Positions 1,399 to 27,734 of a stretch of DNA of 64,000 nucleotides are shown piece by piece; within the stretch, counting starts at the first letter, position 1; each line of letters starts with the position of its first letter. This stretch comes from a virus (Duplodnaviria > Caudoviricetes), in the IMG/VR virus record IMGVR_UViG_3300042946_000581, positions 1 through 64,000 of that record. One strand, given 5' to 3'. The position numbers and the translations under genes are program-made. The notes beneath the pieces are model-generated. The model saw only the letters and a program-made list of their open reading frames with translations, was not told where the DNA came from and did not search any database.

Positions 1399-1403
1399 TA
1401 TGA

Positions 1404-1640
1404 ATGAAAACTTTTGAGGAGCAAAAAAGGTTAACTGAGTTAAAATATCTTAGAACTGGGGATAAAATCCATATTAAGTCTCGTGATGGTTTATATACCT
1501 TCTTAAAAAAAGACTTTAGAACTGGTGAAATTCATATAACCTGTAAAAGGTGGCAGTATGAAGAAAATCCGATAAGAGTAACAAGTTTTGATGATTTCAA
1601 ATGTTTGGCTGGTGGAATATGGAGAATTATTAACAATTAA
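1404..1640 (+). CDS. Hypothetical protein
   Basis: ORF track, co-oriented with neighbours. Confidence 0.6.
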   Translation: MKTFEEQKRLTELKYLRTGDKIHIKSRDGLYTFLKKDFRTGEIHITCKRWQYEENPIRVTSFDDFKCLAGGIWRIINN

Positions 1641-1654
1641 TTTTTAAAAAGATT

Positions 1655-1873
1655 ATGAATAAGTCTGAAATAATTAAACAGATTAAAGATTTGAGTGGTT
1701 TTAATAGTTCTGATGCAACGATGGCTATAAATGTCGTGCAAGAAATTTTAACAACATCGTTATCAAAAGGTGAAAAAATAACCATTCCAAATTTTGGAAC
1801 ATTTGAAGTTGAGAACACAAAAATAATTTTTAAACCTAGTAAAAATTTGTTAAAGTCAATTAATAGCTTATAG
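1655..1873 (+). CDS. HU/IHF family DNA-binding protein (shortened arm)
   Basis: MNKSEIIKQI...LSKGEKITIPNFGTFEV...FKPSKNL matches the HU pattern; the RNP arm is missing. Confidence 0.85.
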   Translation: MNKSEIIKQIKDLSGFNSSDATMAINVVQEILTTSLSKGEKITIPNFGTFEVENTKIIFKPSKNLLKSINSL

Positions 1874-1900
1874 AGGAACTTGGGATATTAAATATAAAAA

Positions 1901-1974
1901 GGGGGATTAGCTCATTCAGCAAGAGCACTTGTTTTGCACACAAGAGGTGGTCGGAGCAAAGCCGACATCCTCCA
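1901..1974 (+). tRNA. tRNA-Ala (TGC) with atypical T-loop
   Basis: GGGGGAT/ATCCTCC acceptor with G3:U70, CTTGT-TTTGCAC-ACAAG, T-arm GTCGG-AGCAAAG-CCGAC. Confidence 0.85.
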
Positions 1975-2005
1975 CTAAACAATAAACATTTTTTAAAATA
2001 AATTT

Positions 2006-2605
2006 ATGAGAAAATTTTTAGTATTTTTAGTATTAGTAGTATTATTGACATCTTGGTCATATACACCCCCACGTAGGGTATTATTTATCGGTGATAGTTT
2101 AACCTGTGCAACTGGTGGGTGGCAAGACCAAGTTTCCAAACATTTTGGATATCAAAGGGTCAATTTATCTAAAGGTGGTGTTAGAACGGATTATATGAGG
2201 ACAACCCTAAATGCTTGTTTTAAAAACGATTCAGCTTTCTCACAAGTATTCATTTATGGTGGATGCAATGATGCTTTCTCTTATGTAAATCTCCAAGGTG
2301 CGGTTAATAACATTCAAATGATGGTTGATAGTTGTAATAGAAGAGGAATTGAACCAATTGTGATTGTGGGTTTTAATCCTGCTCAAGTAACAACAAAAAC
2401 TGTCTATGACGCAGAAACAACCAAGAGATGTGTTGGAAGATACATTGAGTTTCAAAAGTTGATGGTTCACGAGAAAACTGGTTTAAAAAATTGTAAGATA
2501 ATTCCAATGGATACAACAATGTTTTATAGTGATACTGGTGATGGAATTCATTTTGCAGCGAGTGGTCATAGAAAATTTGCTAATTGGGTTATAAAACATA
2601 TGTAA
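2006..2605 (+). CDS. Secreted SGNH/GDSL hydrolase (esterase)
   Basis: Signal peptide; FIGDSLT, NLSKGG, GGCND and DGIHF blocks. Confidence 0.85.
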   Translation: MRKFLVFLVLVVLLTSWSYTPPRRVLFIGDSLTCATGGWQDQVSKHFGYQRVNLSKGGVRTDYMRTTLNACFKNDSAFSQVFIYGGCNDAFSYVNLQGAVNNIQMMVDSCNRRGIEPIVIVGFNPAQVTTKTVYDAETTKRCVGRYIEFQKLMVHEKTGLKNCKIIPMDTTMFYSDTGDGIHFAASGHRKFANWVIKHM

Positions 2606-2859
2606 AAATGAAAAAAATATTTTGGTTTTCAATTTTAATCACTATCTTTGTATCCTGTAACAAACACCCCACAATAGAACCTGGTGATATTGTTAAGAAG
2701 TGTGTAATTGATACGATGTATATTACAGAATCAACATCCACAATTGAATTTGGTAAGAGATATAATTATAAAACCGATTGTGATGAATTGATATTGACAA
2801 GAAGAAGTGATGTATATAAAATAGGGGATACAATAACCTACGTTTATAAAAGAAGATAA
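2584..2859 (+). CDS. Putative lipoprotein (likely start MKKIFWF at 2608)
   Basis: Hydrophobic signal with FVSC lipobox. Confidence 0.65.
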   Translation: MGYKTYVKMKKIFWFSILITIFVSCNKHPTIEPGDIVKKCVIDTMYITESTSTIEFGKRYNYKTDCDELILTRRSDVYKIGDTITYVYKRR

Positions 2860-2866
2860 TATATTG

Positions 2867-2941
2867 GCTGGTAAAGCATAGGTGGTGATGCACTTGACTT
2901 GTAATCAAGATAATGGGGTTCGATTCCTCATACCAGCTCCA
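2867..2941 (+). tRNA. tRNA-Thr (TGT), CCA encoded
   Basis: GCTGGTA/TACCAGC, CTTGA-CTTGTAA-TCAAG, GGTTCGATTCC. Confidence 0.92.
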
Positions 2942-2955
2942 AAAATCCCAATTGA

Positions 2956-3080
2956 TGTAGATAGATTGGGTGGTTAGCAAGCCCAATTGCTCGTATTATG
3001 GTTAATATGTCACTATAACCAGGGTTGCCAAGACCAGATTGTTGGCAGTTTACACGAGATAGTCACTCGCATTTTCTACA
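2956..3080 (+). ncRNA. Putative multi-branch structured ncRNA
   Basis: TGTAGA/TCTACA closing stem with ATTGGG/CCCAAT, CTCGT/ACGAG, GGTTA/TAACC and TGCCAA/TTGGCA helices. Confidence 0.5.
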
Positions 3081-3246
3081 AAAGGCAAAAAACACTAGTC
3101 CGTTTCTACAGGATGATGGGGTATTGAAAAAGTGTAGCTAACTTGGAAGATACCCCAAAATTTTTTAAAAAAAACATAGGAAAAAATGAATAATTCAGGA
3201 AGAACAACTATCTTTGTCTTATTAATCACTGAAACACATAATCACA

Positions 3247-3477
3247 ATGGCTAAAGAGAAAAAAACAATCCAAGTTGAGTTATTAAAAGAATTCGCAAAC
3301 AACTATTTGGCTATTCCAATGGTTTCTATCCAAGAAAAAATGGGCATTATCACAATGATTGAAAAGGTTCTACATGAATCCAATGCTTATAAAGGCTATA
3401 TGTATTTGAAACTTGAAGAAAACAATACCCCACCAGCATTTGAAACTGAGGGGTGGGTAACAAGAAAATATTTTTAG
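3247..3477 (+). CDS. Hypothetical protein
   Basis: ORF track; preceded by TATCTTTG (-7 box-like). Confidence 0.65.
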   Translation: MAKEKKTIQVELLKEFANNYLAIPMVSIQEKMGIITMIEKVLHESNAYKGYMYLKLEENNTPPAFETEGWVTRKYF

Positions 3478-3574
3478 CGGTTGTGACACCTAATAATTCA
3501 CAAGTAGTGGTTGACACTTAGAATGTTACCTGACTTTATGGTTTGGAATAGAAAAACCGAAAACTTTTAAAACT

Positions 3575-3847
3575 TTGAATATTATGACACTTATTTATGT
3601 AATCTTGGATAGTAACGATAGAATTCCTATTCTAACTACAAGTAGTATTGAAAAAGCTGAATTACTTTTGAATCAATATATGGGTGTTGAAGGTCCTATA
3701 TTTGATGAAAGTGTTGAGTATATAGGTTTTGAACCGTTTGATGACAGAGGTTATTATACACCTTATGAAGGTGAATACAAATATAAAACTGAAGATGGTG
3801 AACAAAGATTCATAAGATATTGTATGGGATTAGATACTTTAAATTAA
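3575..3847 (+). CDS. Hypothetical protein
   Basis: ORF track. Confidence 0.6.
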   Translation: MNIMTLIYVILDSNDRIPILTTSSIEKAELLLNQYMGVEGPIFDESVEYIGFEPFDDRGYYTPYEGEYKYKTEDGEQRFIRYCMGLDTLN

Positions 3848-3852
3848 AATTT

Positions 3853-3924
3853 AGTCTTGTAGGCAAATTGGTAAGTCACGAATACTAATGTAGGGGTACG
3901 CAGGTTCGATTCCTGTCAGGACTA
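3853..3924 (+). pseudogene. Pseudo-tRNA / tRNA-like RNA with intact acceptor, D and T arms but a broken anticodon arm
   Basis: AGTCTTG/CAGGACT, GGC-AAATTGGTAA-GTC, GCAGG-TTCGATT-CCTGT; anticodon stem does not pair. Confidence 0.6.
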
Positions 3925-3930
3925 CAACAT

Positions 3931-4019
3931 TTAAAACATCAACTCGTAAAGAAAATGATGGCAAAGAGGTTCAGATTAAAGGTAACGGGCTCCTACCTAC
4001 CCTGAACAAGATGTTTTAA
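3931..4019 (+). ncRNA. Putative ~90-nt structured RNA
   Basis: 10-bp closing stem TTAAAACATC/GATGTTTTAA; inner GTTCAG/CTGAAC and AGGTA/TACCT. Confidence 0.45.
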
Positions 4020-4046
4020 TTAATATGGTCAAGTGGCGGAATATTT

Positions 4047-4119
4047 GCACCCATAGCTCAACTGGAAGAGCAAAAATTTTCTAAGTTTTCGGTTGTAGGT
4101 TCGAGTCCTACTGGGTGTA
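4047..4119 (+). tRNA. tRNA-Arg (TCT)
   Basis: GCACCCA/TGGGTGT, AAAAT-TTTCTAA-GTTTT, GTAGG-TTCGAGT-CCTAC. Confidence 0.9.
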
Positions 4120-4139
4120 CTAAAACAAATTATAAAATT

Positions 4140-4325
4140 ATGAAATTTAAAGTAGGAGACAAAGTTTACAAACCGAAAGGTTACAAATTCCCAGGTATAG
4201 TTGTTGCGGTATTCCAAACTACATCTGGTGAAACAAGAATTGTTGCAGAATTAATTGATAATGGTATGTTACACATATTTAGTGAAAGTCAGTTAGAACT
4301 TGATAATGATGAAAAAAATGATTAA
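4140..4325 (+). CDS. Small hypothetical protein (SH3/KOW-like beta barrel)
   Basis: MKFKVGDKV...GYKFPGIVVAVF pattern. Confidence 0.6.
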   Translation: MKFKVGDKVYKPKGYKFPGIVVAVFQTTSGETRIVAELIDNGMLHIFSESQLELDNDEKND

Positions 4326-4566
4326 TATGGAAAAAACTCCAATACAAAACGTTATAGACAGAGTTGAAAAACTTGTTAGAGAAGCTAAACAAAATACAGA
4401 GGAAAAAAGAAAATTAAATATAGTTATTTCTTATCTTTGGGATGAGTTACAAAATGAAAGATATGTAATGTCTGAAATTTATGAAAAAAGTAAAAAAGAA
4501 GATAATGAAGTAACTGGAAAAATGTGGATTGAAAAAAATTTTATAGACTATCAAAAATTTTTATAA
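4300..4566 (+). CDS. Hypothetical protein
   Basis: ORF track. Confidence 0.55.
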   Translation: MIMMKKMINMEKTPIQNVIDRVEKLVREAKQNTEEKRKLNIVISYLWDELQNERYVMSEIYEKSKKEDNEVTGKMWIEKNFIDYQKFL

Positions 4567-4694
4567 TGAAAGACGAAAATCAAGGTAAAACAAATGACCA
4601 AAGAGAATTTGCAATGTTTATGTTCTCTGGTTCAATGTTAGCACTAATTGTATTAGGATTGGTTTATCTCATTAAGGTGGGATTTAACCTTTAA
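4566..4694 (+). CDS. 42-aa single-pass membrane protein (not in ORF track)
   Basis: Manual translation MKDENQGKTNDQREFAMFMFSGSMLALIVLGLVYLIKVGFNL; TAATG coupling to the upstream stop. Confidence 0.6.
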   Translation: MKDENQGKTNDQREFAMFMFSGSMLALIVLGLVYLIKVGFNL

Positions 4695-4701
4695 AAGAAA
4701 T

Positions 4702-4785
4702 GCCTGAGTGGTGGAATGGTAGACACGTTTGGCTTAGACCCAAATTCCGTTTAAAGGAGTAAGAGTTCGAATCTCTTCTTAGGTA
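4702..4785 (+). tRNA. tRNA-Leu (TAG)
   Basis: GCCTGAG/CTTAGGT, TTTGG-CTTAGAC-CCAAA, long variable arm, AAGAG-TTCGAAT-CTCTT. Confidence 0.92.
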
Positions 4786-4808
4786 CTAACATTTTAAAAA
4801 AAGAAATT

Positions 4809-10719: not shown

Positions 10720-11104
10720 AAACCCCTTCTTAACGGAGGGGTTTTTTTATTTTATGTAATATTTATTATAAAAATTAAAAATATGAAAAAAATTATAAAA
10801 TTAACAGAATCAGATTTAATTAGATTAGTAAAGAAAGTTATTAAAGAAGAAGATGGTGAATATCTTAGAGGGGAACTTCACGCACTTGTTGGAAAAGTAA
10901 TGAAACTTGAAAAAAGAATGGAAATGCGTGGTAATCCTGACTGGATGGTGGAAGAATACGAGGAAGCTGAAAAGGAACTTAAAAAATTCCTTCAAAAACA
11001 TCCTTCTATGAATGATTATCTTGAAGAGGTTGAGAATCACTTTATTAAACGATTATACCAATAATTTAATTAAAAAAATAAACCCCTTCTTAACGGAGGG
11101 GTTT
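10720..11104 (+). repeat. 25-bp direct repeat of a terminator (10720-10744 and 11080-11104) bracketing gene 10783-11064
   Basis: AAACCCCTTCTTAACGGAGGGGTTT occurs twice. Confidence 0.85.
10783..11064 (+). CDS. Late small protein with putative head-targeting N-terminus
   Basis: MKKIIKLTESDLIRLVKKVIKE; ATATTTAT at 10759. Confidence 0.7.
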   Translation: MKKIIKLTESDLIRLVKKVIKEEDGEYLRGELHALVGKVMKLEKRMEMRGNPDWMVEEYEEAEKELKKFLQKHPSMNDYLEEVENHFIKRLYQ

Positions 11105-11114
11105 CTTTTTTAAA

Positions 11115-11494
11115 GGTGGAGGCATGGAGAGTCGAACTCCTTCCTGTCCATCTTAACTATTAAGGACTACATGTTTAGGACAACATTATTCGCAGTGTTC
11201 CGAACTATTTGATTTTCATACACCCAAAATCAACAAAATCGGTCAATTCATTTTTAGGGATGAGAATTGATTAGACAACCCTATAGCGCTCCTGTTCCTG
11301 AGTTAATGCACCCCGACTCGAAAGTAATACCCTATTAACTAGGCTACTACCGCTTCTTCAGCACGGATTAAACCTACTGCAGAAAGTTTGTTGATAACGT
11401 TGCCGTGTATCGTTTCAAACCAGTTTAACAGACTTAGTTTAGGTCTGACATGCCCCTAATAACTAACAACGTCAGTCAATTCCAGATTACCCCC
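11115..11494 (-). ncRNA. ssrA: tmRNA (one-piece); tag frame 11404-11339 encodes (A)GNVINKLSAVGLIRAEEAVVA*
   Basis: 5' GGGGGTAATCTGGAATTGAC, GCATGTCAG/pk1 region, 3' GGAGTTCGACTCTCC-ATGCCTCCACC with G3:U Ala identity pair. Confidence 0.92.
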
Positions 11495-11573
11495 TTTTGT
11501 AAAGTACTACAATGATAAATATAATGATTGATAATTCCAAGTTTTGATTATATTTATTTTAATAAAAAAATGT

Positions 11574-12950
11574 ATGGAATATTCTAATAACGATATATTG
11601 TTTGAAAATGAAAAATACTTGGCAATTAAATCTCCAAATATGGAAGAGGGTTTAAAAGTAGGTCCAGAATTCTTAACTACAACAAGACATGGTAAAGATG
11701 TCTATAATAATAGAACAGTATACTTTTTCATTAATAAAGAAGAAAAAGATACTAGATATGGAATTATAACTCTAACACTTGGAAAGTATGGTACTGAGTT
11801 ATATGATAACTATGGTGATGATGTTGAATTAAGAGATGCTTTTTATTATTTTCCAATTTTAGATAAAACAATTACAGACATAGTTGGTGATGTTGATTTA
11901 ATAACAACCTTAACATTAATTGAGAACGGGAAAGAATTTGATAGATGGAAATTACAGAGATTAGATTCTAATATCAAATATGTTCAATATAATCAAAAAA
12001 GACCTAAACTTAGTAAAATATATTTAACCTTTGATTCAAGTGAGGGGATTTTAGAATTTTTGGATTTCCCAGATGATGTTCAATATTACATTAAAACAGT
12101 TTTAAATCCATATGGTTATGGTGGTGATTTATGGGGTGACCATTATAGAATGACCGATGAATGGATTGAGGGTTATATGATACAATCATTTAATGATGAG
12201 AATAGAAAATTAGTTGACAAAATTGTTGAATTAATAAAACCAGAATTTTTTAATTGGAAAGAAGAAGAGGGAATAAGAGAAGAGTTATGTAAGTTATTGT
12301 ATGAAATGTTTGATAGTAGAATAAGGAATATTATAAGTGAATATGGCACAGTATATGAAAATGCTGGAAGTGAGGCTTTAAAAAAAGAATTAATTGATGA
12401 TTTTTGTAATCTATTTGTTGATAATAATTTTCAAATATTTGTGGTAAAGAATTATTGTTTTGATGAATATAGAACTTGGGTTAGTTATTTGAAAGAGCTT
12501 TTAATACAATATCGTGTTGATACTATTGAAGATTTAGTAAAAAGAATATCAGAAGACCATATTAACGCAGACTTAGGACATGAAATTAATGAATATCCAT
12601 ATCATGGTGATATTGACGAAGAATCTTTTAACAGAGAAGTTGAATCCGAACTTGAAAAAATAATTGACCAAATTGAAGAAAATCCTGAAAAGTACTCAAA
12701 GAATGCTAGTGAGAATGGAAAATTAGTTTTAATACTTAAAAAGTACCCTTTGAATAAACCATTCTCAATTGATGATGGAAGAGGTTTGGTTACTATCACA
12801 GGAATTAAAGATGGGAGACTTCTTGTAACTCATATTAAAACGAATGGTGAAAGAACAAATAAGAGTTTCAATTCTGAAGAATTTTATAATTTTATTGCAA
12901 TGGGTGAATTATTTGAAGATTTAGTTAGAAAATTAAAAAGAATGTTGTAA
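11574..12950 (+). CDS. Hypothetical protein
   Basis: Long ORF (track 11544-12950, ATG at 11574); C-terminal LFEDLVRKLKRML. Confidence 0.7.
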   Translation: MEYSNNDILFENEKYLAIKSPNMEEGLKVGPEFLTTTRHGKDVYNNRTVYFFINKEEKDTRYGIITLTLGKYGTELYDNYGDDVELRDAFYYFPILDKTITDIVGDVDLITTLTLIENGKEFDRWKLQRLDSNIKYVQYNQKRPKLSKIYLTFDSSEGILEFLDFPDDVQYYIKTVLNPYGYGGDLWGDHYRMTDEWIEGYMIQSFNDENRKLVDKIVELIKPEFFNWKEEEGIREELCKLLYEMFDSRIRNIISEYGTVYENAGSEALKKELIDDFCNLFVDNNFQIFVVKNYCFDEYRTWVSYLKELLIQYRVDTIEDLVKRISEDHINADLGHEINEYPYHGDIDEESFNREVESELEKIIDQIEENPEKYSKNASENGKLVLILKKYPLNKPFSIDDGRGLVTITGIKDGRLLVTHIKTNGERTNKSFNSEEFYNFIAMGELFEDLVRKLKRML

Positions 12951-12959
12951 TATTGTGTC

Positions 12960-13775
12960 ATGAAACACAATTACGATTTACTCAAAAAGGTTTTGTCCAT
13001 ACCTACCAAGACATACAAAGAGGACTTAATGATTCAATTCCTAGGTGAATGGTTAACAGAAAACAATATCCCTTATCAAGTTGATAAGATGGGTAATGTA
13101 TATGCAACCAAACAAACGGATGATATTGAATATTTTCCTTGTGTTGTTGCACATACCGACACAGTCCACGAATTGGATACAATCAACATTAAAGAAATGA
13201 TGTTACCCAATGACCAAAAAGAATTAAAACCAGCATTAAAAGCTTTTAATGATAAAGGAGAACCAACAGGTATTGGTGGGGATGACAAATGTGGTGTTTA
13301 TGTATGTTTGGAATTATTAAAAAATTTACCAAATGTGAAAGCCGCATTTTTTGTCTCAGAAGAAACTGGTTGTCACGGTTCAAAGAATGCAGATAAAGAG
13401 TTTTTCTCAAATGTTGGATATGTTATTCAATTTGACGCCCCAGGTAATTGGATGGTTAGTGAATATTGTATGGGGACAAAATTATTTGATAAGAAGTCTG
13501 AATTCTTCATCAAATGTGATAAGGTGTTAACTGAGGGATTTGATAACAGAAACAAGTACCAGTCACATCCTTATACTGATGTTTATGCTCTCAAAAATCA
13601 ATTTGATTTTTCTTGTATAAATTTCGCCGTAGGGTATTACAACTACCACACAAAACACGAATATGTGATTGTCGAGGATGTTTTTAATACATTGGAAATT
13701 GCAAAGAAAATGATTAATAATTTGGGGAATGTGAAATATTTTGAGGAAGTTAAATCAAGTAAATTTTTACTATAA
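12960..13775 (+). CDS. M20/M28-clan Zn-dependent peptidase/amidohydrolase
   Basis: AHTDTVH, GGDDKCG, EETGCHGS, FDAPG, YHT..E metal ligands. Confidence 0.85.
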   Translation: MKHNYDLLKKVLSIPTKTYKEDLMIQFLGEWLTENNIPYQVDKMGNVYATKQTDDIEYFPCVVAHTDTVHELDTINIKEMMLPNDQKELKPALKAFNDKGEPTGIGGDDKCGVYVCLELLKNLPNVKAAFFVSEETGCHGSKNADKEFFSNVGYVIQFDAPGNWMVSEYCMGTKLFDKKSEFFIKCDKVLTEGFDNRNKYQSHPYTDVYALKNQFDFSCINFAVGYYNYHTKHEYVIVEDVFNTLEIAKKMINNLGNVKYFEEVKSSKFLL

Positions 13776-13818
13776 AAAAAAACCAATTTTTGATAATATT
13801 TATTATAAAAATTTAAAA

Positions 13819-14844
13819 ATGAAAAAAATAATTTATTTGAATGAATCTGATTTATATCAGATAAGTAATAGAGTTATAGAAGAACAAGAACTTGATGAAA
13901 TTATGAGATTTAATTTACCAGTTGGGACTCAATTAGGTAATATATATCAAGGTATAAGAGGATTTACAAAAGGTGAAAGTTATAGTTACTTCAATTATTT
14001 GAGTAAAATTAAGAATAGAAGTAAAAGAGTAATGAATGAAATTGACCATATTGAAACTTTCGTAAAATACCTAATTGATTTAAGACCAAAGATTGAGAAA
14101 ATAAAAATAGCCCCAGAAAAAAAATTACGATTATTGAATTTATTAGATCGTGTAATTAATAAATGGCAACCATTTTTTCCTGAATTTAGTGACGCGATTA
14201 AAGAAGTAAATAAACTAAGTAGTGAAAAATTGAGTGGTAAAAGATTAGATGTCGTTCCAGGTCTTGACCCAAATGAAATAGGTAGTGATTTAATGGAACC
14301 TCAAGTTGCTCAAGTTAATTTAGGAGGGAATAATAATTCAAGTGGTTCTAAATCTACTGGTGGTAATCCTAATCCTATGGGTGGTTCTAAATCTACTGGT
14401 GGTAATTCTAATCCTACTGGAGGTGGTTCTAAATCTACTGGTGGTAATTCTAATCCTACTGGAGGTGGTTCTAAATCTACTGGTAATAATCCTAATCCTA
14501 CTGGTGGTGGTTCTAATCCTACTGGTAATAATCCAATGGGTGGTTCTAAAAATACAAATCCAATTGTGGATGACGATGATTTTATTGATTATGAAGAAGT
14601 TGATGATACGGATGAACCTTTTATGTTAAACCCACCAACAGAAAAAAAACCAACAACAGATGATTTATCATCAGTATCAAATCGTAGAAGAAAAGACCCT
14701 AACACAAAAGATAATTGGGGTAGTGGAAATAAACCTAAAAATGATATTGGTATAGACGATGATGATTTATCAGATGAAGAAAAGATGTTATTAGGTAAGA
14801 CAGTAACAGAAGAAATAGAAAGATTTAAAGAATTAATTAGATAA
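13819..14844 (+). CDS. Late, probably virion-internal protein with G/S/N/P/T tandem repeats
   Basis: ATATTTAT at 13796; MKKIIYLNESDL N-terminus; VTEEIERFKELIR C-terminus. Confidence 0.7.
   Translation: MKKIIYLNESDLYQISNRVIEEQELDEIMRFNLPVGTQLGNIYQGIRGFTKGESYSYFNYLSKIKNRSKRVMNEIDHIETFVKYLIDLRPKIEKIKIAPEKKLRLLNLLDRVINKWQPFFPEFSDAIKEVNKLSSEKLSGKRLDVVPGLDPNEIGSDLMEPQVAQVNLGGNNNSSGSKSTGGNPNPMGGSKSTGGNSNPTGGGSKSTGGNSNPTGGGSKSTGNNPNPTGGGSNPTGNNPMGGSKNTNPIVDDDDFIDYEEVDDTDEPFMLNPPTEKKPTTDDLSSVSNRRRKDPNTKDNWGSGNKPKNDIGIDDDDLSDEEKMLLGKTVTEEIERFKELIR
14342..14550 (+). repeat. In-frame ~39-42-nt tandem repeat (GGSKSTGGNSNPTG)n
   Basis: ggtggttctaaatctactggtggtaattctaatcctactgga repeated about 4-5 times. 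Confidence 0.9.
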
Positions 14845-14854
14845 AAAAAAGGGA

Positions 14855-16885
14855 CTATTCAGTCCCTTTTTTCTTTTTTGATTTTTTAACTTCTTTTTCT
14901 TTAAACACTATATTTTCTTCATTGGTTGTGAGCTCATAATTTTCATTCTCAACAACATTTCCGTTAAGTACTTCCTCGGATATGAAATCTTCAATTTTGT
15001 CTTGTATGGCTCGTTTTATTGGCCTTGCGCCATATGTTTCATCAAACCCAACTTTTGAAATCAAATCGTAAACAGATTCATCACAAGTTATATTATAATT
15101 TAATCCATTCAATCTATTAATTAATTTCTCAATTTCAAGTTTTACAATTTGTTTAACTTCTTCTTCTTTCAAAGTATTAAATACAATAATTTCATCAATA
15201 CGATTTAAGAACTCAGGAGCAAAAAACTTTTTAAGTTCTTTCTTTAGCATATCTCTTTTTTCTTCCTCTTCAATGTAAGAATTTGTACTTGTTTTAAATC
15301 CAACACCAGTTCCAAATTCTTGGAATTTTTTAACCCCAAGATTGGAGGTCATAATTATGATACAATTTTTGAAATTGATTTTTCTTCCCAATCCATCAGT
15401 AAGATGTCCATCATCCAACACTTGAAGTAATGTTGAGAATACATCTTTATTCGCCTTTTCAATTTCATCAAATAGAATAACTGAATATGGTTTATTTTTA
15501 ACTTGTTCAGTTAATTGTCCGCCTTCATCATAACCAACATAACCTGGGGGCGAACCTATCAATCTTGATATTGAATGTTTTTCTTGGTATTCTGACATAT
15601 CAACTCGGATAAGGTTTTCTTCACTACCAAAGATTTCTTTGGCCAATTGTTTTGCTAGATACGTTTTACCCACACCTGTTGAACCCAAGAAAATAAATGA
15701 ACCTATAGGTTTACTTGGGTCTTTAATACCAAGTCTATTTCTACGAATTGATTTGGCAATTTTGGATACCGCTTCAGATTGACCAATGACTTTAGATGAA
15801 AGATTATCCGCCAATGATGAAAGTTTATTCGTTTCATCTGAGTTCATTTTTGATACAGGTATTTTGGTCATATTAGATACAACTTCATAAACCAATTCAA
15901 ATGAAATATCTTTTTTCTTGGTTAATAAATCAGATTCAAATTTTTTCTTTTCTGATTCTAATTTATCCAATATTTTTGTTTCTTTATCTCGTAAATCTGC
16001 AGCTTGTTCATAATTTTGACTTTTAACAACCTCAATCTTTTGTTGTTTAATATCCAACGCTTGAAGTTTCAAGTCTTCAATGATTTGGGGCATCTTAGTG
16101 TCAACTTGACTTCTTGCCCCAACTTCATCAATGATATCAAAAGCCTTATCAGGGAATTCTCTATCTGTGATATATCTTTCTGCCAAATCAACACAAAGTT
16201 TTAGAATCTCATCACTATAACTTACTTTATGATAATTTTCATATTTGTCTTTAACATTAATTAAAATCTGTAAGGTTTCTTCTTTTGTTGAGGGGTCAAC
16301 AATTACTTTTTGGAAACGTCTTTCTAATGCCCCATCTTTTTCAAAATTCTTTCTATATTCATCTAAGGTTGTTGCGCCAATACATTGTATTTCACCCCTT
16401 GCCAAAGCTGGTTTAAAAATGTTTGACGCATCCAATGAACCTGATGAATTCCCGGCACCAACTATTTGGTGTATTTCATCAATGAAAAGAATTATATTTG
16501 GGGCAGATTGTAGTTCTTCAATAATAACTTTCATTCTTTCTTCAAATTGTCCACGATATTTTGTTCCCGCAACAATTGATGTCATATCCAAGGACATAAT
16601 TCTTTTATCCATTAGATTTCTTGGACATTCCCCATTCAATATTTTTAATGCTAAACCTTCTACTATTGCGGTTTTTCCACAACCAGGTTCACCAATTATA
16701 ATTGGATTATTCTTTTTTCTTCTTGATAATATTTGGGCGATTCTTGTTATTTCTCTATCTCTACCAACCACGGGGTCTAATTTCCCTTCTTCGGCAAGTT
16801 TGATTAAATCCTTTGCGAAGTTATTTAATACTGGGGTATCACCTTTACCTTTTGTTGAGTAATCTCCATCTTTTGATTCTATCAT
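14855..16885 (-). CDS. clpC: ClpC-type AAA+ unfoldase lacking the N-terminal Clp-repeat domain
   Basis: Two AAA modules (GEPGCGKT, GSTGVGKT), UVR M-domain (QNYEQAADLRD), GSPPGYVGY pore loop, VGF ClpP-docking loop. Confidence 0.93.
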   Translation of the reverse strand: MIESKDGDYSTKGKGDTPVLNNFAKDLIKLAEEGKLDPVVGRDREITRIAQILSRRKKNNPIIIGEPGCGKTAIVEGLALKILNGECPRNLMDKRIMSLDMTSIVAGTKYRGQFEERMKVIIEELQSAPNIILFIDEIHQIVGAGNSSGSLDASNIFKPALARGEIQCIGATTLDEYRKNFEKDGALERRFQKVIVDPSTKEETLQILINVKDKYENYHKVSYSDEILKLCVDLAERYITDREFPDKAFDIIDEVGARSQVDTKMPQIIEDLKLQALDIKQQKIEVVKSQNYEQAADLRDKETKILDKLESEKKKFESDLLTKKKDISFELVYEVVSNMTKIPVSKMNSDETNKLSSLADNLSSKVIGQSEAVSKIAKSIRRNRLGIKDPSKPIGSFIFLGSTGVGKTYLAKQLAKEIFGSEENLIRVDMSEYQEKHSISRLIGSPPGYVGYDEGGQLTEQVKNKPYSVILFDEIEKANKDVFSTLLQVLDDGHLTDGLGRKINFKNCIIIMTSNLGVKKFQEFGTGVGFKTSTNSYIEEEEKRDMLKKELKKFFAPEFLNRIDEIIVFNTLKEEEVKQIVKLEIEKLINRLNGLNYNITCDESVYDLISKVGFDETYGARPIKRAIQDKIEDFISEEVLNGNVVENENYELTTNEENIVFKEKEVKKSKKKKGTE

Positions 16886-16939
16886 ATTTTTGTTTTTAAC
16901 TAATTATAATATTTATTTTCACATTTTCAACTATGGTAA

Positions 16940-16956
16940 ACTGACAAATTGTCAGT
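16940..16956. promoter_or_regulatory. Palindromic operator-like site in the divergent clpC/UVR promoter
   Basis: ACTGACA-AAT-TGTCAGT. Confidence 0.5.
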
Positions 16957-17040
16957 ATTTTTTTATTGTTGACTAGTTAATTTAATTGGTATATAATTGG
17001 ATTATAAAAATGAAAATAAACTTATAAAAAATATATTATT

Positions 17041-17475
17041 ATGAACAGCAAAGATTTTTATAAAAAATTTGAAGAAATTTTAAATGAAATTTTCAGTCAA
17101 GACAATCAAAAATTTAATGCCCCTATGGATGGATTTTTCAAAGGGTTAAAATCTGAGGACATTTCAAAAGAAATAAAAAAATACAGAAATTCTGTTAGAA
17201 AATCTAGTGATGGATTATTTACAACTATTAGTTTCATATTTACTAATCCACCATTTAGTGATAAGAGTGAAATTAATGAATTGAAATCTAAATTAGAGGA
17301 ATGCGTATCAAATCAAGATTTTGAGGAAGCTGCAAAATTAAGAGATAAAATTAAAGAACTTGAGAATAACACATCTAAGGTTAAAGATTTAAAAAAAGAG
17401 TTGGACATTGCGATTAAAGAACAAAATTTTGAAAGAGCAATTGAAATCCGAGATGAATTAAAAAAAATAAACTAA
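17041..17475 (+). CDS. Tandem UVR (UvrB/C motif) protein, McsA-like C-terminus
   Basis: LEECVSNQDFEEAAKLRDKIKEL and LDIAIKEQNFERAIEIRDELKKI. Confidence 0.85.
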   Translation: MNSKDFYKKFEEILNEIFSQDNQKFNAPMDGFFKGLKSEDISKEIKKYRNSVRKSSDGLFTTISFIFTNPPFSDKSEINELKSKLEECVSNQDFEEAAKLRDKIKELENNTSKVKDLKKELDIAIKEQNFERAIEIRDELKKIN

Positions 17476-17517: not shown

Positions 17518-17760
17518 ATGGCAATATTAAGAGAAGAAATCAGAGGTACAAAAATTATTAATGAAATTCAGTCGAGTAATATTAGAAAGACAGAATTTGA
17601 TACGGAATCAAAAGAGTTAATTGTGGAATTTAACAACGGACTAAGATATTTGTATGAAAATGTCCCACATCAGTTATATACTCAATTTAGGATGTCGGAA
17701 TCTCAGGGTAAGTTTTTCAATTCCAAAATAGCAAAATCATATCAATACAAAAGGTTGTGA
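17518..17760 (+). CDS. KTSC domain protein
   Basis: SSNIRKTEFD...LIVEFNNGLRYLYENVP...SQGKFFNSKI. Confidence 0.88.
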   Translation: MAILREEIRGTKIINEIQSSNIRKTEFDTESKELIVEFNNGLRYLYENVPHQLYTQFRMSESQGKFFNSKIAKSYQYKRL

Positions 17761-17792
17761 TAATTATAGTGATACACTAATATTTATCATTT

Positions 17793-18536
17793 ATGGAAAG
17801 TTTAAATAAAGTCATATCTAGTTTTAAATTGAATTCAACATTACAACCAAAAATTTGGATTGATGGGGGTTCGACAATGAATCCAAATGTTAGAAAAAAT
17901 TTACTAGAAATTGCCTATCAATTCATTGATTCCTTTGGGGTTGATGTGATTGTGTCAGATATAATTGTTGTTGGTTCAATCGCCAATTATAATTGGTCGG
18001 AATATTCTGATGTTGATTTACACATACTTGTTGAGTATAATCAATTTTCAAATAAATTAAAAGATATGTATGTTGAATATTTTGATTTAAAAAAAATAGT
18101 GTTTAATCAAAAAAGAGACATAAAAATGTTTGGTTATGATGTTGAGGTTTTTGTTGAAGATGCGGATATGAAAGGTGTTAGTGGTGGTGTTTATTCTATC
18201 TTAAATGATGAATGGATTACAAAACCAACCAAAGAAAAAATGAAAGTTAGTGATGAAGAAATTACGAATAATGCAAAAAAATGGATGCGAATTATTGATA
18301 ATTTAATTAAACATTTGGAGGGTGAAAGTATTGAGGAAATTAATAATAATATTAAGGTAATCAAAAATAAATTAAAAAAATATAGAGTAAGTGGTTTAAA
18401 TAAATCTGGTGAATTAGGATTAGAAAATTTAGTCTTTAAAGTTTTGAGACGTAATGGTTATATTGAGAAATTATATAATATCCCAACAAAAGTTATTGAC
18501 AAAAAACTTTCTTTAGCAGAAAAAGAAAAGAATTGA
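17793..18536 (+). CDS. Pol-beta superfamily nucleotidyltransferase
   Basis: GSIANYNWSEYSDVDLH, DVEVFVED; late motif at 17780. Confidence 0.8.
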   Translation: MESLNKVISSFKLNSTLQPKIWIDGGSTMNPNVRKNLLEIAYQFIDSFGVDVIVSDIIVVGSIANYNWSEYSDVDLHILVEYNQFSNKLKDMYVEYFDLKKIVFNQKRDIKMFGYDVEVFVEDADMKGVSGGVYSILNDEWITKPTKEKMKVSDEEITNNAKKWMRIIDNLIKHLEGESIEEINNNIKVIKNKLKKYRVSGLNKSGELGLENLVFKVLRRNGYIEKLYNIPTKVIDKKLSLAEKEKN

Positions 18537-22497: not shown

Positions 22498-24267
22498 ATG
22501 AGTTTAACAAAAGAACAAGTAATGATTGAATATGTTAAGTGTATGAAAGATACCCCATACGCGTTAAGAACATATTTGGAAACCTATGACAATACTGTAT
22601 CAAAATATGTTCCATTAGAGTTATTTCCAGACCAAGTATCATTATTAAATGACTATGAAGAGGTTAATGAAAACATTGCATTAAAATACAGACAAGCTGG
22701 GGTATCAACAGTAACTGCTGCTTGGGTATCTAAAAAAATTGCTTTTGCAAAAAAAACAAAACCTGAAAAGATTCTAATCATTGCCAACAAATTGGATACA
22801 TCACAAGAGATGGCAAATAAAATAAGAATGTTTATTGGTCAATGGCCAAGTTGGGTCGGAATTGATTTTTCTGTTGATAAAAATTCACAAAAACATTACA
22901 AGACAAACAATGGATGTGAAGTAAAAGCTGTGGCGACCTCAAAGGATGCTCTACGTGGTTTTACACCAACAATCCTAGTATTTGACGAGGCAGCATTTAT
23001 TGACGCGGATTCAGACTTTTGGGCTGCTTGTATGGCTTCACTATCAACTGGGGGTAAAGTTATTGTGGTATCAACACCAAATGGTTATGACCCAATTTAT
23101 TATGAAATATATAATCAAGCAAATAGGGGAATGAATGACTTCAAAATATCTGAGATGTTTTGGTTTAGAGACCCAAGATATACAAAAGATTTATATTTAG
23201 TTAAAACCAAAGACATTATTCATTATCTATTAAATAAAACTGAATATCAAAAAGAGGATATTGTCAGTTGGGAAAATATATCATTTGAGGATAGAAATTA
23301 TGATGAACTTAAATTAATAATGAATTCAGGGTACAAACCTTGTTCATCTTGGTTTGAGGGAATGGTAAAGAAACTTAAATACGATAAACGAAAAGTTTCA
23401 CAAGAATTAGAGTGTAATTTTCTTGGGTCAGGTGATAATGTATTTGATTCTCTTTTAATGCAGAGAGTTAAAGAAAATATGATTAAAGAACCCCAAAATA
23501 AAATGATGGGTAATTCTTTATGGATATGGAAAGAACCTATTATGGGACATAAATACGTTATGGGTGTGGATGTCAGTAGAGGGGATAGTGAAGACTTTAG
23601 TTCTTTCCAAATTATTGATTTTGATACAAGAGAACAAGTTGCAGAATATGTTGGGAAATTACCTCCAGATACAATGGCTGAAATATGTTATAAGTGGGGT
23701 AATATGTATAATTGTTTTATTGTAATAGATATAACTGGTGGTATGGGAGTTTCAACATCAAGGAAGTTACAAGAGTTGGGTTATAAAAATTTATATGTTG
23801 ATGGGGTTGATTTAGCTAACAAATGGAAGTATGACCCTAAGGCATTGGATAAAATCCCTGGATTAAATTTCAATAACAAACGTGTTCAGATAATTGCATC
23901 ATTTGAGGAAGCAATGAGACATGAATTTAAGATACATAGCTCAAGGTTATTTGATGAGATGAACACCTTTGTTTATGTCAATGGAAGACCTGACCACCAA
24001 AAAGGACAACACGATGACTTAATAATGTCAATTGCAATGGCGACTTATGTTGCAGAATCATCTTTTAGCAGTTTAGAAAAAGTCACTGAACAAACAAAGG
24101 CAATGTTGGAATCTTGGGCTGTATCCAACAATGAAAATATGGGAAAACAATTGGACTTTAATCCAGTAATGCCATTTAATCACGATAGATTACAACAAAG
24201 GAATCAAAATGTTTCAAAGGATGATTATATGAAATACTCTTGGTTATTTGGAAACCAAAGAAGATAA
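22498..24267 (+). CDS. terL: Terminase large subunit (T4 gp17-like)
   Basis: KYRQAGVST Walker A, LVFDEAAF Walker B, STPNG, MGVDVSRG and HDDLIM nuclease motifs. Confidence 0.95.
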   Translation: MSLTKEQVMIEYVKCMKDTPYALRTYLETYDNTVSKYVPLELFPDQVSLLNDYEEVNENIALKYRQAGVSTVTAAWVSKKIAFAKKTKPEKILIIANKLDTSQEMANKIRMFIGQWPSWVGIDFSVDKNSQKHYKTNNGCEVKAVATSKDALRGFTPTILVFDEAAFIDADSDFWAACMASLSTGGKVIVVSTPNGYDPIYYEIYNQANRGMNDFKISEMFWFRDPRYTKDLYLVKTKDIIHYLLNKTEYQKEDIVSWENISFEDRNYDELKLIMNSGYKPCSSWFEGMVKKLKYDKRKVSQELECNFLGSGDNVFDSLLMQRVKENMIKEPQNKMMGNSLWIWKEPIMGHKYVMGVDVSRGDSEDFSSFQIIDFDTREQVAEYVGKLPPDTMAEICYKWGNMYNCFIVIDITGGMGVSTSRKLQELGYKNLYVDGVDLANKWKYDPKALDKIPGLNFNNKRVQIIASFEEAMRHEFKIHSSRLFDEMNTFVYVNGRPDHQKGQHDDLIMSIAMATYVAESSFSSLEKVTEQTKAMLESWAVSNNENMGKQLDFNPVMPFNHDRLQQRNQNVSKDDYMKYSWLFGNQRR

Positions 24268-24288
24268 TATTTATAAAATAAAAACATT

Positions 24289-24429
24289 ATGGGACTAGTT
24301 GACAGAAAAAAATCAGGTAAAATTATAGATTCAAAAGTATTAGTACCTAATCAAGGTATTATAACCTCTAAGATACAAATACCAGACAAATTAGAAATCA
24401 AAACTACCAAAATTAAAGGGAATAATTAA
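24289..24429 (+). CDS. 46-aa basic late protein (not in ORF track)
   Basis: MGLVDRKKSGKIIDSKVLVPNQGIITSKIQIPDKLEIKTTKIKGNN; own ATATTTAT at 24267. Confidence 0.55.
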   Translation: MGLVDRKKSGKIIDSKVLVPNQGIITSKIQIPDKLEIKTTKIKGNN

Positions 24430-24466
24430 CTCTTTAATTATCTCGCTAATCAATTAAATTAGATTT

Positions 24467-26257
24467 ATGGAACAAAATGATATGAATTTAACAGTATGGC
24501 AAAGGTTGTCTAAGGCCTTTGGGCCTAACGCATTATTAAATCAAGATTATCCGACATATAAGTTTGATAAGAAAGAATTATTACGTACAACATCAAAACA
24601 AGAGTACGAAAAAGAATTATTACAAGCTCAACAAACTTATTACCTAGGTAATCAGTGGACAAAGATTGAAAGTAATCTTTATACTCAAGCAATATATTAT
24701 GAACCAACTAGATTGGCTTCTTTCTATGATTATGAATCTATGGAGTTTACCCCAGAAATATCAACAGCTTTAGACATATATGGGGAAGAATCCACTACTG
24801 TAAATCAAGATGGGTTTATGTTACAAATCTATTCAGAATCAAAAAGGATAAAAGGTATTTTGGCTGATTTATTTAATAACTCATTGGATATAAATACTAA
24901 TTTACCAATGTGGACTAGAAATACTTGTAAGTATGGCGATAATTTTGTTTATCTTAAACTTGACCCTGATAAAGGGATTGTTGGTTGTATGCAATTGCCA
25001 AACATTGAAATTGAACGTTTTGAACGAGGTATACCCGCTCAAGCGACAAGACAAAATGTTGAAGAACCCTCAGAAAACAAAGGACTAAGATTTAAATGGA
25101 AAGTCAAAGATATGGAATTTAATTCTTGGGAGATTGCTCACTTTAGATTATTAGGAGATGATAGAAAGTTACCTTATGGTACATCAATGTTGGAGAAGGC
25201 AAGACGTATTTGGAAACAATTATTATTGGCTGAAGATGCAATGTTAATATATAGAACATCAAGAGCCCCTGAAAGAAGAGTATTTAAAGTATTTGTGGGT
25301 AATATGGACGATAAAGATGTTGAACCATATGTACAACGTGTTGCTAACAAATTTAAACGTAGTCAAGTAGTTGATTCTCAATCAGGTAATGTTGATATGA
25401 GGTTCAATCAAATGGCGGTAGACCAAGATTATTTTATTCCAGTTCGTGACCCTGCTCAAGCAAGTCCAATTGAAACATTGCCTGGTGGTACCAACTTAGG
25501 TGAAATTGCTGATATTGAATATATCCAAAAGAAACTATTAACGGCATTACGTGTGCCTAAAGCATTTTTAGGTTTTGAAGAACCAGTTGGTGATGGTAAG
25601 AATTTATCTTTAATTGATATTCGTTTTTCACGAACAATTAATAAGATTCAGAAGTCAATGATTGCCGAATTAAATAAAATTGCCATTATACATTTATTTT
25701 TGTTGGGATTTGAAGATGAGTTGAATAATTTTACATTAGGGTTAACAAATCCATCAAAACAAGCTGATTTATTGGGTATTGAGGTTTGGAAAGAAAAAAT
25801 TGCGGTATATAAAGAATCTGTTACGGCATTACAAGATGGTACCGCTCCAACATCACATACTTGGGCAAAGAAACATGTATTAGGTTTCTCTGAAGAGGAA
25901 ATTAAAAATGACTTATTACAACAACGTATTGAAAGAGCTGTTGGGGCCGAATTAAATAATACTGCAACGATTATTACTAAAACTGGTATATTTGATAATA
26001 TTGATAAATTATATACTCAAAAAAGTGGTAGTACAACATCAGCTGGCGGAGCTCCCCCTCCACCTGATGGAGGAGCACCACCACCACCTGATGGAGGAGC
26101 ACCAATGGGATTACCTGAAAATGAAAAGAAAGATAATTTGAAAATATTATTGGAATCTGATGGGTTATTAGATGATGAAACTTTCATTGATTTATCAAAA
26201 GGAAAAAATTTCTTAGGTGAAATGGAGGTTCATTTAAATAAACTTTTAAATGGGTAA
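24467..26257 (+). CDS. Portal protein (T4 gp20-like)
   Basis: YESMEFTPEI, EDAMLIYRTSRAPERRVF.V.VGN, DYFIPVR, IETLPGG, ALRVPKAFL. Confidence 0.95.
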   Translation: MEQNDMNLTVWQRLSKAFGPNALLNQDYPTYKFDKKELLRTTSKQEYEKELLQAQQTYYLGNQWTKIESNLYTQAIYYEPTRLASFYDYESMEFTPEISTALDIYGEESTTVNQDGFMLQIYSESKRIKGILADLFNNSLDINTNLPMWTRNTCKYGDNFVYLKLDPDKGIVGCMQLPNIEIERFERGIPAQATRQNVEEPSENKGLRFKWKVKDMEFNSWEIAHFRLLGDDRKLPYGTSMLEKARRIWKQLLLAEDAMLIYRTSRAPERRVFKVFVGNMDDKDVEPYVQRVANKFKRSQVVDSQSGNVDMRFNQMAVDQDYFIPVRDPAQASPIETLPGGTNLGEIADIEYIQKKLLTALRVPKAFLGFEEPVGDGKNLSLIDIRFSRTINKIQKSMIAELNKIAIIHLFLLGFEDELNNFTLGLTNPSKQADLLGIEVWKEKIAVYKESVTALQDGTAPTSHTWAKKHVLGFSEEEIKNDLLQQRIERAVGAELNNTATIITKTGIFDNIDKLYTQKSGSTTSAGGAPPPPDGGAPPPPDGGAPMGLPENEKKDNLKILLESDGLLDDETFIDLSKGKNFLGEMEVHLNKLLNG

Positions 26258-26272
26258 TATTTATAATAAAAA

Positions 26273-26992
26273 ATGAATATGAAATTTGGAATTATTAAAT
26301 CAAAAATAGATTACGTATTATCAGAATCATTCAAGAATGATGAACATTTTAAAGTGGAAATGAAATTCTTTAAAAAGAATATTTTGGAGAACAAAAACCT
26401 TAGTAAACTTTTTTATTTATATGATGAATTAACTACAAAAAGAAATATGGATAAAAACATTGTTGATGATTACATCAATCAATCAATTACTATATATGAA
26501 AATACTATCAATAAATTAAAACCAATTGACTATAAAAAGTTGGACTATTGGTTAAATGGTATTGAGACTGAAAACCAATATGAAAATATTGATAAATTGT
26601 TTTCAACCAATATCCTAACACTAGAAAATAAAGTTATCAATAAAAAAATAATTGCGGAATCATTAATTAAAAAAGAAGAAACTAAGGAGGTAATTAATTT
26701 ACCAATTAGTTCAATGATTAAATTAGCTAATAAATCTATTTTGTCTTATATTGAAAATTTAAATGAAAGTGATAAGAGTGAACTAGTAAGATTCTTGTCT
26801 CAAGATGAAAAGATTATGAAAGAGAGTTATGAATCAACAAAACTTGAAGTATTAACAAAATTAAATAACCATAAATTAGAATCGGATTCTGATACATCAA
26901 TAAGAATTGATGAAACCATATCAAAACTAAAAGAGGAGAAGTTTGATAAATTGACTTATTTCAAATTAAAAAATCTGAACGAAAGCCTTTAA
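26273..26992 (+). CDS. Hypothetical head-module protein
   Basis: Late motif at 26257; position between portal and protease. Confidence 0.65.
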   Translation: MNMKFGIIKSKIDYVLSESFKNDEHFKVEMKFFKKNILENKNLSKLFYLYDELTTKRNMDKNIVDDYINQSITIYENTINKLKPIDYKKLDYWLNGIETENQYENIDKLFSTNILTLENKVINKKIIAESLIKKEETKEVINLPISSMIKLANKSILSYIENLNESDKSELVRFLSQDEKIMKESYESTKLEVLTKLNNHKLESDSDTSIRIDETISKLKEEKFDKLTYFKLKNLNESL

Positions 26993-27177: not shown

Positions 27178-27251
27178 AATTTGGTTTTTTTGACATTTAT
27201 TCAAATTTTACTTATTTTTTATTCAAAAATAAACAAAAAAATATTTTATGA

Positions 27252-27710: not shown

Positions 27711-27734
27711 ATATTTATTAATAAAAATCACAAA

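Follow-up and report, generated by a model that had tools for sequence, protein, structure and literature searches.

Do the genes for a transfer-messenger RNA (tmRNA), a metallo-aminopeptidase, a ClpC-type unfoldase without its N-terminal domain (N-domain) and a small protein with two UVR motifs, which lie side by side in the phage record IMGVR_UViG_3300042946_000581, form one system that tags and degrades proteins? The stretch that was analysed (the window) is the first 64 kb of this 98,690-base IMG/VR record, for which CheckV gives a completeness of 34%. A preliminary description of the window had named these four elements, and all of them were found by Rfam, Pfam, PHROG and alignment to solved structures. 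Together they are a conserved phage-specific gene set for translation rescue and proteolysis. We give about even odds (a probability of roughly 0.5) to the reading that this is one accessory block serving one task, which is to clear stalled translation and to recycle protein to amino acids with core parts taken from the host.

The block is kept together in related phages. Relatives were confirmed in 594 of 602 candidate stretches, and the best 80 were kept; these gave 78 loci in which ClpC is 70–99% identical. A tmRNA is present in 61 of the 78 loci, always on the strand of clpC and 1.0–4.5 kb past its end. Where the flank is 7 kb or longer it was found in every one of 49 loci, and where it is 5 kb or longer in 54 of 55. 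The peptidase gene is present in 76 loci, the two misses having 146 bp of flank or less. In 67 loci the peptidase gene and clpC converge, and in nine the former lies co-directionally, directly downstream of the latter, which indicates that the pair has survived rearrangement. Within the clade the synteny that the preliminary description led us to expect is therefore seen for the tmRNA, the peptidase and ClpC. It is not seen for the gene of the double-UVR protein, which is optional, and it does not extend to four distant huge phages with a headless ClpC.

The tmRNA gene (ssrA; 11114–11494, reverse strand) is of the one-piece type and matches the full Rfam model RF00023 (positions 1–374) with 84.8 bits against a gathering threshold of 47 (E 1.9e-31). 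ARAGORN did not report a tmRNA in the window. The acceptor stem, as read from the Rfam alignment, pairs GGGGGUA with UGCCUCC and has a G3-U wobble like that of tRNA-Ala. The 3' end is encoded as ACCU, so that the CCA end must be completed after transcription. Among 55 distinct tmRNAs the G-U at pair 3 is kept in 53, the other two being alignment gaps, and compensatory changes occur at pairs 4–7. The tmRNAs of distant relatives were above the Rfam gathering threshold in all six cases tested (66–118 bits).

The tag reading frame (11339–11404, reverse strand) consists of the resume codon GGC at 11404–11402, which opens the 21 codons for GNVINKLSAVGLIRAEEAVVA, and a TAG stop at 11341–11339; the tag product is alanine followed by this peptide. 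The same frame is present in all 55 distinct tmRNAs, with a tag of 21–22 residues that begins with G in 53 and with D in two. The 33 distinct 21-codon sequences follow the pattern G-N-[VTIL]-[LFI]-x-K-[ML]-x-x-x-G-L-[IVL]-[RKA]-x-x-x-x-x-V-A, in which G1, K6, G11 and L12 are invariant and A21 is found in 32 of the 33. Variability in these sequences is 0.81, 0.51 and 1.16 bits at the first, second and third codon positions, a signature of translated sequence. From these patterns we judge the tmRNA to be intact and its tag to be under peptide-level selection. In four of five Bacteroidota genomes ARAGORN gave tags of nine residues that end in LAA or MAA; the phage tag, with its 21–22 codons, is long and differs from these. 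A profile of the phage tmRNAs aligns with these Bacteroidota tmRNAs at both ends only.

Phage tmRNAs as such are already known from mycobacteriophages, phage G and huge phages, and the accessible text of one survey counts them in 402 of 18,146 phage genomes. ARAGORN detects 10 of our 55 distinct tmRNAs, giving the full long tag for five, a truncated C-terminal part for three and another frame for two, and Rfam is above threshold for all seven phage tmRNAs tested. As ARAGORN misses 45 of the 55, surveys based on it under-count phage tmRNAs.

Other RNA elements occur close to the tmRNA in related phages. The GOLLD RNA (275–323 bits in Rfam) adjoins it on the opposite strand in four of six relatives scanned (L012, 16365–16758; L050, 14847–15261; L061, 17059–17464; L072, 14837–15241). 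Two phages of 630–640 kb likewise have GOLLD, at a distance of a few kb from clpC (L108, 9535–9940; L109, 6016–6422); Rfam has no GOLLD match in the window. Genes for tRNAs are found further along from the tmRNA in four of the six loci scanned. In L031 a group I intron match (71.4 bits, 14394–14624) abuts the 3' end of the tmRNA match (14039–14401), and the sequence search there matched only query positions 11–333 of the 381-base tmRNA; this tmRNA may be interrupted by an intron.

The unfoldase gene (14855–16885, reverse strand) encodes a double-ring AAA+ protein of 676 amino acids (aa) with matches to the Pfam families AAA, AAA_lid_9, UVR, AAA_2 and ClpB_D2-small. Its closest relative of solved structure is Staphylococcus aureus ClpC (E ~1e-223, query 14–662 to chain 157–802), and Bacillus subtilis ClpC is also among the best (for the two together, query 10/14–662 and chain 153/157–802/804). 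As the alignment begins at residue 157 of the chain, the first ~150 residues of S. aureus ClpC have no counterpart in the phage protein. The open reading frame (ORF) is closed upstream, with 155 bp to the next gene. The Clp_N domain (PF02861) was found in none of five records searched, namely the source record and four relatives, three of which are complete. The preliminary description was thus correct that the N-domain is missing, and the protein is filed as a ClpC-derived variant and not as a canonical ClpC.

Uninterrupted ClpC relatives in phages are mostly 669–719 aa long (one has 766 aa and one is a fused ORF of 1101 aa), and in none is the stretch ahead of the first ring long enough for an N-domain. 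In contrast, 161–202 extra N-terminal residues are present in each of the 79 Bacteroidota ClpC homologues that do not run into a contig end. The nearest cellular ClpC genes (80 loci) are overwhelmingly from Bacteroidota, with 54–62% identity. Judged by these comparisons, the phage ClpC descends from Bacteroidota ClpC, and the missing N-domain is a derived state of the phages. In four huge phages that are more distant, ClpC is 46–58% identical and has no more than 54 open codons before it, which makes the headless ClpC a recurrent trait of phages.

The rest of the protein is well conserved. All 63 phage ClpC sequences share, without variation, the Walker A and B motifs, both pore loops (with Tyr) and the ClpP loop F-G-x-G-[VIM]-G-F, and the ClpP loop has the same form in 77 Bacteroidota ClpC homologues. 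In the source ClpC it reads F-G-T-G-V528-G-F530, so the VGF docking loop that had been noted lies at residues 528–530. The M-domain is short and matches PF02151 at residues 279–305 with 21.3 bits, just below the cut-off of 21.5. Its tip reads Q-N-Y292-E-Q-A-A-D-L-R299-D300, and [YF]292, R299 and D300 are invariant in the 63 sequences.

ClpC is normally restrained by its N-domain and its M-domain, and drugs or mutations that remove this control kill bacteria. A phage ClpC with an intact M-domain tip and no N-domain can be compared with a mutant that has been studied. The accessible text of Carroni et al. 2017 (PMC5699869) shows that M-domain contacts in S. aureus ClpC use F436, R443 and D444. 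Their counterparts are Y292, R299 and D300 in the phage ClpC and the F/R/D triads of both motifs in the double-UVR protein, each set being a conserved aromatic residue, Arg and Asp. Engineered S. aureus ClpC without the N-domain (deltaN-ClpC) is the subject of a later study (EMBO J 2025, PMC12583610), which we cite from the available portion of its text. In deltaN-ClpC the resting state is abolished and ClpP is bound without an adaptor. Its hexamers pair head-to-head via the M-domains and form inactive rods. The F436A mutant of deltaN-ClpC degrades GFP-SsrA like ClpC activated by MecA, and the SsrA tag is recognised by the pore and not by the N-domain (PMC12583610).

The phage protein resembles this construct in its extent, since it starts 13 residues before the equivalent of residue 157 and the construct (PMC12583610) keeps the linker from residue 147. 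It also keeps the aromatic/R/D tip of the M-domain and the ClpP loop. Unlike the construct, it is the product of a gene found in nature and maintained by selection in hundreds of phage contigs, and it derives from Bacteroidota and not from Firmicutes.

The same biochemistry brings up an alternative that we hold to be improbable, in which the phage ClpC is a deregulated unfoldase. It would seize host ClpP and shred host proteins independently of any tag, to gain amino acids or to remove defences, with the peptidase finishing the products and the proteins encoded beside clpC tuning the enzyme. The N-domain is gone in all phage copies and in 0 of 79 bacterial ones. In S. aureus it acts as a selectivity barrier, and deltaN-ClpC-F436A is more toxic than ClpC-F436A, a toxicity that requires ClpP, according to the parts of the published account that were available. 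The aminopeptidase is always adjacent, and recycling of host protein by a phage has already been proposed in print for a phage tmRNA, again in text seen in part. However, the M-domain tip that keeps S. aureus deltaN-ClpC inactive is fully conserved, so the phage enzyme is probably still regulated. This reading also gives no reason why the tag is so strongly conserved as a peptide.

A second alternative, that the protein is a disaggregase or chaperone of the ClpB/ClpG/ClpL kind which works with Hsp20 and without ClpP, seems to us very unlikely indeed. It draws on the existence of ClpL-like ring dimers that assemble through M-domains, as reported in partly accessible work, and on the Hsp20 gene found next to clpC in some relatives. 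The top partial scores in NCBIfam are also to the ClpB, ClpK and ClpG models, all of them below the cut-offs. The best relatives of solved structure are, however, ClpC proteins, matched over the full length, the short M-domain is of the ClpC type and the F-G-x-G-[VIM]-G-F loop is invariant. ClpB is not known to have such a ClpP loop.

The clpC gene is not continuous in all relatives. In L018, L030 and L075 it is interrupted at the first Walker A motif by ~2 kb with an ORF of 393–402 aa on the same strand, and the match to clpC begins only at residue 69. In L007 and L068 clpC is split at other places, and the fused ORF of 1101 aa lies in L069 (9938–13243). These interruptions may be introns, inteins or homing-endonuclease inserts.

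The exopeptidase gene (12960–13775, forward strand) encodes a protein of 271 aa that Pfam and PHROG place among the dinuclear metallo-aminopeptidases of the MH clan (M42/M20/M28-like). The Pfam matches to M42 (26.5 bits, cut-off 23.2) and M28 (22.7 bits, cut-off 21.3) are both marginal and that to M20 (19.0 bits) is below its cut-off of 24.6; the match to phrog_4191 ('peptidase') has an E-value of 3e-43. Alignment to a PepT-like chain and the TET chain of P. horikoshii locates the motifs H-x-D, DD, EE and H and gives H65 (in the H-x-D motif), D108, E134-E135, H230 and, less surely, D159 as candidate metal ligands, these motifs being presumably the ligands in the TET and PepT-like chains. The phage protein is a catalytic domain and nothing more. 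The inserted oligomerisation domain is missing, as ~105 residues that separate the first and second motifs in the TET chain are replaced by ~35.

The core partners of such a system were found in only some of these phages. The preliminary description had found no gene for ClpP or SmpB in the window, and this holds for the whole 98,690-base record, which at 34% completeness does not show that the phage lacks them. Eight records of relatives were searched, of which two have ClpP and one has SmpB. The ClpP of one of them (G003) is a full-length match to the Pfam family CLP_protease (195.7 bits, profile positions 5–181 of 182). A tblastn search over the 78 loci found SmpB no more than 1.3 kb from the tmRNA in five, and ClpP within 10 kb of clpC in none. 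The lineage seems to add a ClpP or SmpB of its own occasionally and mostly to rely on those of the host. The proposal of a self-contained system is not upheld; the gene set probably depends on host ClpP and SmpB.

The double-UVR protein (17041–17475, forward strand) has 144 aa and is encoded divergently from clpC. It matches PF02151 in two stretches with 74.1 bits against a cut-off of 21.5 (E 5.4e-21). In 28 aligned members there is a helix at the N-terminus, D57-G58 does not vary and two UVR motifs (F94/R101/D102 and F130/R137/D138) are present. The triad residues F94, R101, D102, R137 and D138 are invariant as well, and F130 is almost invariant. The model of the monomer, which is of low confidence (predicted local distance difference test score of 59), has helices at 74–90, 94–126 and 130–143. 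Among 8000 candidates scored, 1316 or more proteins belong to the UVR family at E <= 0.001, and the only names these carry are the automatic 'UvrB' and 'McsA', which JGI assigns because of the UVR motif alone.

We rejected the identification of this protein as McsA. It scores 43.7 bits (2.6e-11) against an NCBIfam cut-off of 210, only the C-terminal motif of the model is matched, and the zinc-finger half is missing, there being one Cys among the 144 residues. An origin as a remodelled Hsp20 is likewise unsupported, as hhalign matches only 19 N-terminal columns with a probability of 8%. The double-UVR protein may still be compared with the known adaptors MecA and McsA/McsB, which are small partners that act on the M- or N-domain of ClpC. 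A similar role is a candidate one for the phage protein, and the UVR-like motif at the C-terminus of McsA is its best NCBIfam match. It is unlike these adaptors in that no McsB partner was seen and Pfam gives no match to MecA, and the ClpC N-domain that the adaptors use is absent.

The place beside clpC that holds this gene is variable. It was examined in 73 loci that contain both the start of clpC and the gene of a KTSC-domain protein; these loci were not dereplicated. The double-UVR gene occupies the slot in 33 and an Hsp20 gene in nine; 13 loci have a short ORF there that matches no family, six have larger inserts, and in the other 12 there is no gene, only 59–176 bp. Among 41 distinct slot ORFs that were scanned, 26 have UVR motifs, nine are Hsp20 and six have no match. 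Hsp20 or other genes thus take the place of the UVR gene elsewhere. The idea that a UVR partner replaces the missing N-domain is not borne out in any demonstrable sense.

The divergent intergenic region of 155 bp between clpC and the UVR gene (16886–17040) contains the two best sigma-70-like matches of a promoter scan, 11/12 each and one on each strand. Promoter-like sites in the region are not above chance (47 against 40.2 ± 6.8), and the consensus used was that of sigma-70, from which Bacteroidota promoters differ. One of the slot ORFs without a family match lies in L015 (9554–9907, reverse strand) and encodes 117 aa; those in two other loci encode 95 and 99 aa. The KTSC-domain protein and a nucleotidyltransferase-like protein (phrog_36119) follow the slot in every locus with flank and lie at 17518–18536 in the window.

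How could these parts serve one task? Host alanyl-tRNA synthetase would charge the phage tmRNA, and host SmpB, or a phage SmpB in some relatives, would deliver it. On stalled ribosomes the tmRNA would then add the phage-specific tag of 22 residues to the nascent chains. By analogy with S. aureus deltaN-ClpC, the headless ClpC should dock onto ClpP without an adaptor, that of the host in this phage and that of the phage in some relatives. It would take its substrates directly through the pore, and chains with an SsrA-type tag are the obvious candidates. The double-UVR protein may be an optional regulator, with its two motifs resembling the M-domain tip capping the M-domains of ClpC and controlling the head-to-head pairing of the rings. 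Such a capping partner could free ClpP-bound headless ClpC from ring pairing. Family and position suggest that the aminopeptidase trims the peptides that ClpP releases. The links from the tag to ClpC and from the UVR protein to the M-domain are hypotheses, which the published ClpC biochemistry motivates well.

A more elaborate form of this mechanism, which we consider doubtful, makes the block an orthogonal channel. The tag would serve as a degron of the phage's own, poorly recognised by host ClpXP, and the headless ClpC on host ClpP would be its dedicated reader. The UVR protein would act as an M-domain decoy that breaks inactive head-to-head ring pairs and thereby turns the enzyme on, and Hsp20 or the other slot genes would be alternative switches in sister lineages. 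If this is so, the conserved N-terminal half of the UVR protein might also hand over the tagged chains.

Several observations weigh against a single task for the block. The UVR gene is optional, being present in 33 of 73 loci. The tip of the ClpC M-domain showed no difference between genomes with the UVR gene, with Hsp20 and with neither, and an identical tip whatever the slot gene suggests that the UVR protein is dispensable or is one of several modulators. The absence of ClpP and SmpB from the record also counts here. Loss of the N-domain does not in itself ensure activity, since S. aureus deltaN-ClpC, when its M-domain is left unmutated, has no proteolytic activity and assembles with ClpP into rods in the available description. 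Terminator-like hairpins, which are consensus matches of a pattern scan, lie at 11080–11104, between the end of the upstream forward-strand gene and the 3' end of the tmRNA, and at 14845–14872, between clpC and the low-complexity gene convergent with it. These hairpins separate convergent units, so that there are four transcription units and not one operon.

The neighbourhood itself gives further reasons for caution. The block lies between a tRNA island and the head genes. The genes on its other side (KTSC, nucleotidyltransferase-like and two more) are equally conserved and are followed by the head module. The whole block is thus collinear beside the head genes, and adjacency is weak evidence. 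In the four distant huge phages with an N-less ClpC, the tmRNA, the peptidase and the UVR gene were found within 12 kb of clpC in 0 of 4. The tmRNA may also belong to an RNA island, since it borders the GOLLD RNA and tRNA genes in relatives.

These features fit an explanation that is possible, though we think it more probably wrong than right, namely that the genes have unrelated jobs. The tmRNA would be part of a translation RNA island and do no more than rescue ribosomes, its tag would be read by host proteases, and ClpC with Hsp20 or the UVR protein and the peptidase would help in folding, assembly or maturation for the head genes. The block abuts the genes for terminase, portal, head protease and major head protein, Hsp20 is found in the slot by clpC in nine loci, GOLLD and tRNA genes flank the tmRNA in relatives, and the distant phages with an N-less ClpC have no tmRNA neighbour. 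Iyer et al. 2021, in the accessible part of their text, suggest that phage ClpA and ClpX may help virion assembly. The virion proteome of phage G, from an account similarly seen in part, holds ClpP and ClpX, and its tmRNA is elsewhere in the genome. Set against this, the tmRNA, the peptidase and ClpC lie within ~1–4.5 kb of one another in every locus with enough flank, despite changes of orientation. The invariant ClpP loop points to degradation and not to folding alone, and a separate head maturation protease is encoded at 27735–28454.

In bacteria the closest known system is trans-translation with Clp proteolysis, in which the pore of Hsp100 or ClpX unfoldases takes the SsrA tag. As in that system, there is a one-piece tmRNA with an acceptor stem of the Ala type, an in-frame tag that ends in hydrophobic residues and Ala, and an unfoldase with a ClpP-docking loop nearby. 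The phage version is different in its tag, which has 21–22 codons against nine in four Bacteroidota genomes and ends in V-[VT]-V-A and not in LAA or MAA. It is also different in that the genes are borne by a phage, an N-less ClpC stands in place of ClpX or ClpA, and the record is without SmpB and ClpP.

Among phages, jumbo phages are reported to carry ClpP, ClpS, ClpA or ClpX, in the accessible parts of the literature. The Bacillus megaphage G encodes a tmRNA, ClpP and ClpX. It is unlike the present phage in that its tmRNA and clpXP are far apart, its tag has 13 residues and its unfoldase is ClpX, as far as the available text goes. An N-less ClpC, a UVR partner or an adjacent aminopeptidase is not described for phage G and other phages with tmRNA or Clp genes in the text that was accessible. 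A literature search of partial coverage found no published description of a block of tmRNA, peptidase, ClpC and UVR genes.

The headless ClpC is a natural N-domain deletion that apparently arose once in a large phage lineage, where selection keeps it along with the M-domain tip and the ClpP loop. With it one can ask, in a natural setting, how an unfoldase without regulation gets tamed or aimed. It is accompanied by a small protein that is a candidate for acting on the M-domain and by a tmRNA tag that is long and conserved. Should the parts be coupled, the block would be a private tag-and-destroy route of the phage that parasitises host ClpP. This would bear on host takeover, on the recycling of amino acids in nutrient-poor lakes and on tools for protein degradation.

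The source is a freshwater jumbo phage of Bacteroidota of ~300 kb that belongs to the bS21 clade. A bS21 gene (27013–27168, reverse strand) lies amid the genes for terminase (22498–24267), portal, head protease and major head protein (region 22498–32221), and this gene assigns the record to the published bS21 phages. The bS21 gene was detected in all five related records searched, including three complete relatives of 304–321 kb. Chen et al. 2022 (PMC9723584) described phages of freshwater Bacteroidetes that share the bS21 gene on the reverse strand in the terminase-portal-protease-capsid region, an origin in lake water and a size of up to ~320 kb. In its accessible text the paper refers to chaperones, to Clp protease and to a shared family of 'chaperone ATPase' proteins. 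The terms tmRNA, SmpB, UVR and peptidase do not occur in its main text, as far as this was available.

The stretch or a part of it is held in 24 public sequencing runs, of which 20 are labelled lake water metagenome, two freshwater metagenome and two 'metagenome'; no RNA run is among the runs listed. The phage collection that was searched contains no cultured relative, the top ClpC identity there being 58.6%, to an uncultured phage of 635 kb.

Two further genes lie within the block. A protein of 468 aa without a family match is encoded at 11544–12950 (forward strand; likely start ATG at 11574), divergently from the tmRNA. It has no match in Pfam, PHROG or NCBIfam, no solved relative in a PDB profile search and no usable lead in the Atlas, where the record starts at residue 11. 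The protein is fast-evolving, with homologues of 24–33% identity in the same place in most loci. The ORF at 13741–14844 (forward strand) encodes a low-complexity protein with repeats rich in Gly, Ser, Thr and Asn, for which Pfam and PHROG give no match and tblastn gives matches in a minority of loci.

The window begins with a tRNA array, in which ARAGORN finds eight genes (106–4786) and Rfam a ninth, weak match at 3853–3924. An ORF resembling a homing endonuclease (721–1398) lies within this array. Further endonuclease-like ORFs are found directly after the major head protein gene, one resembling endonuclease VII (32293–33009) and one a homing/HNH endonuclease (33105–34808).

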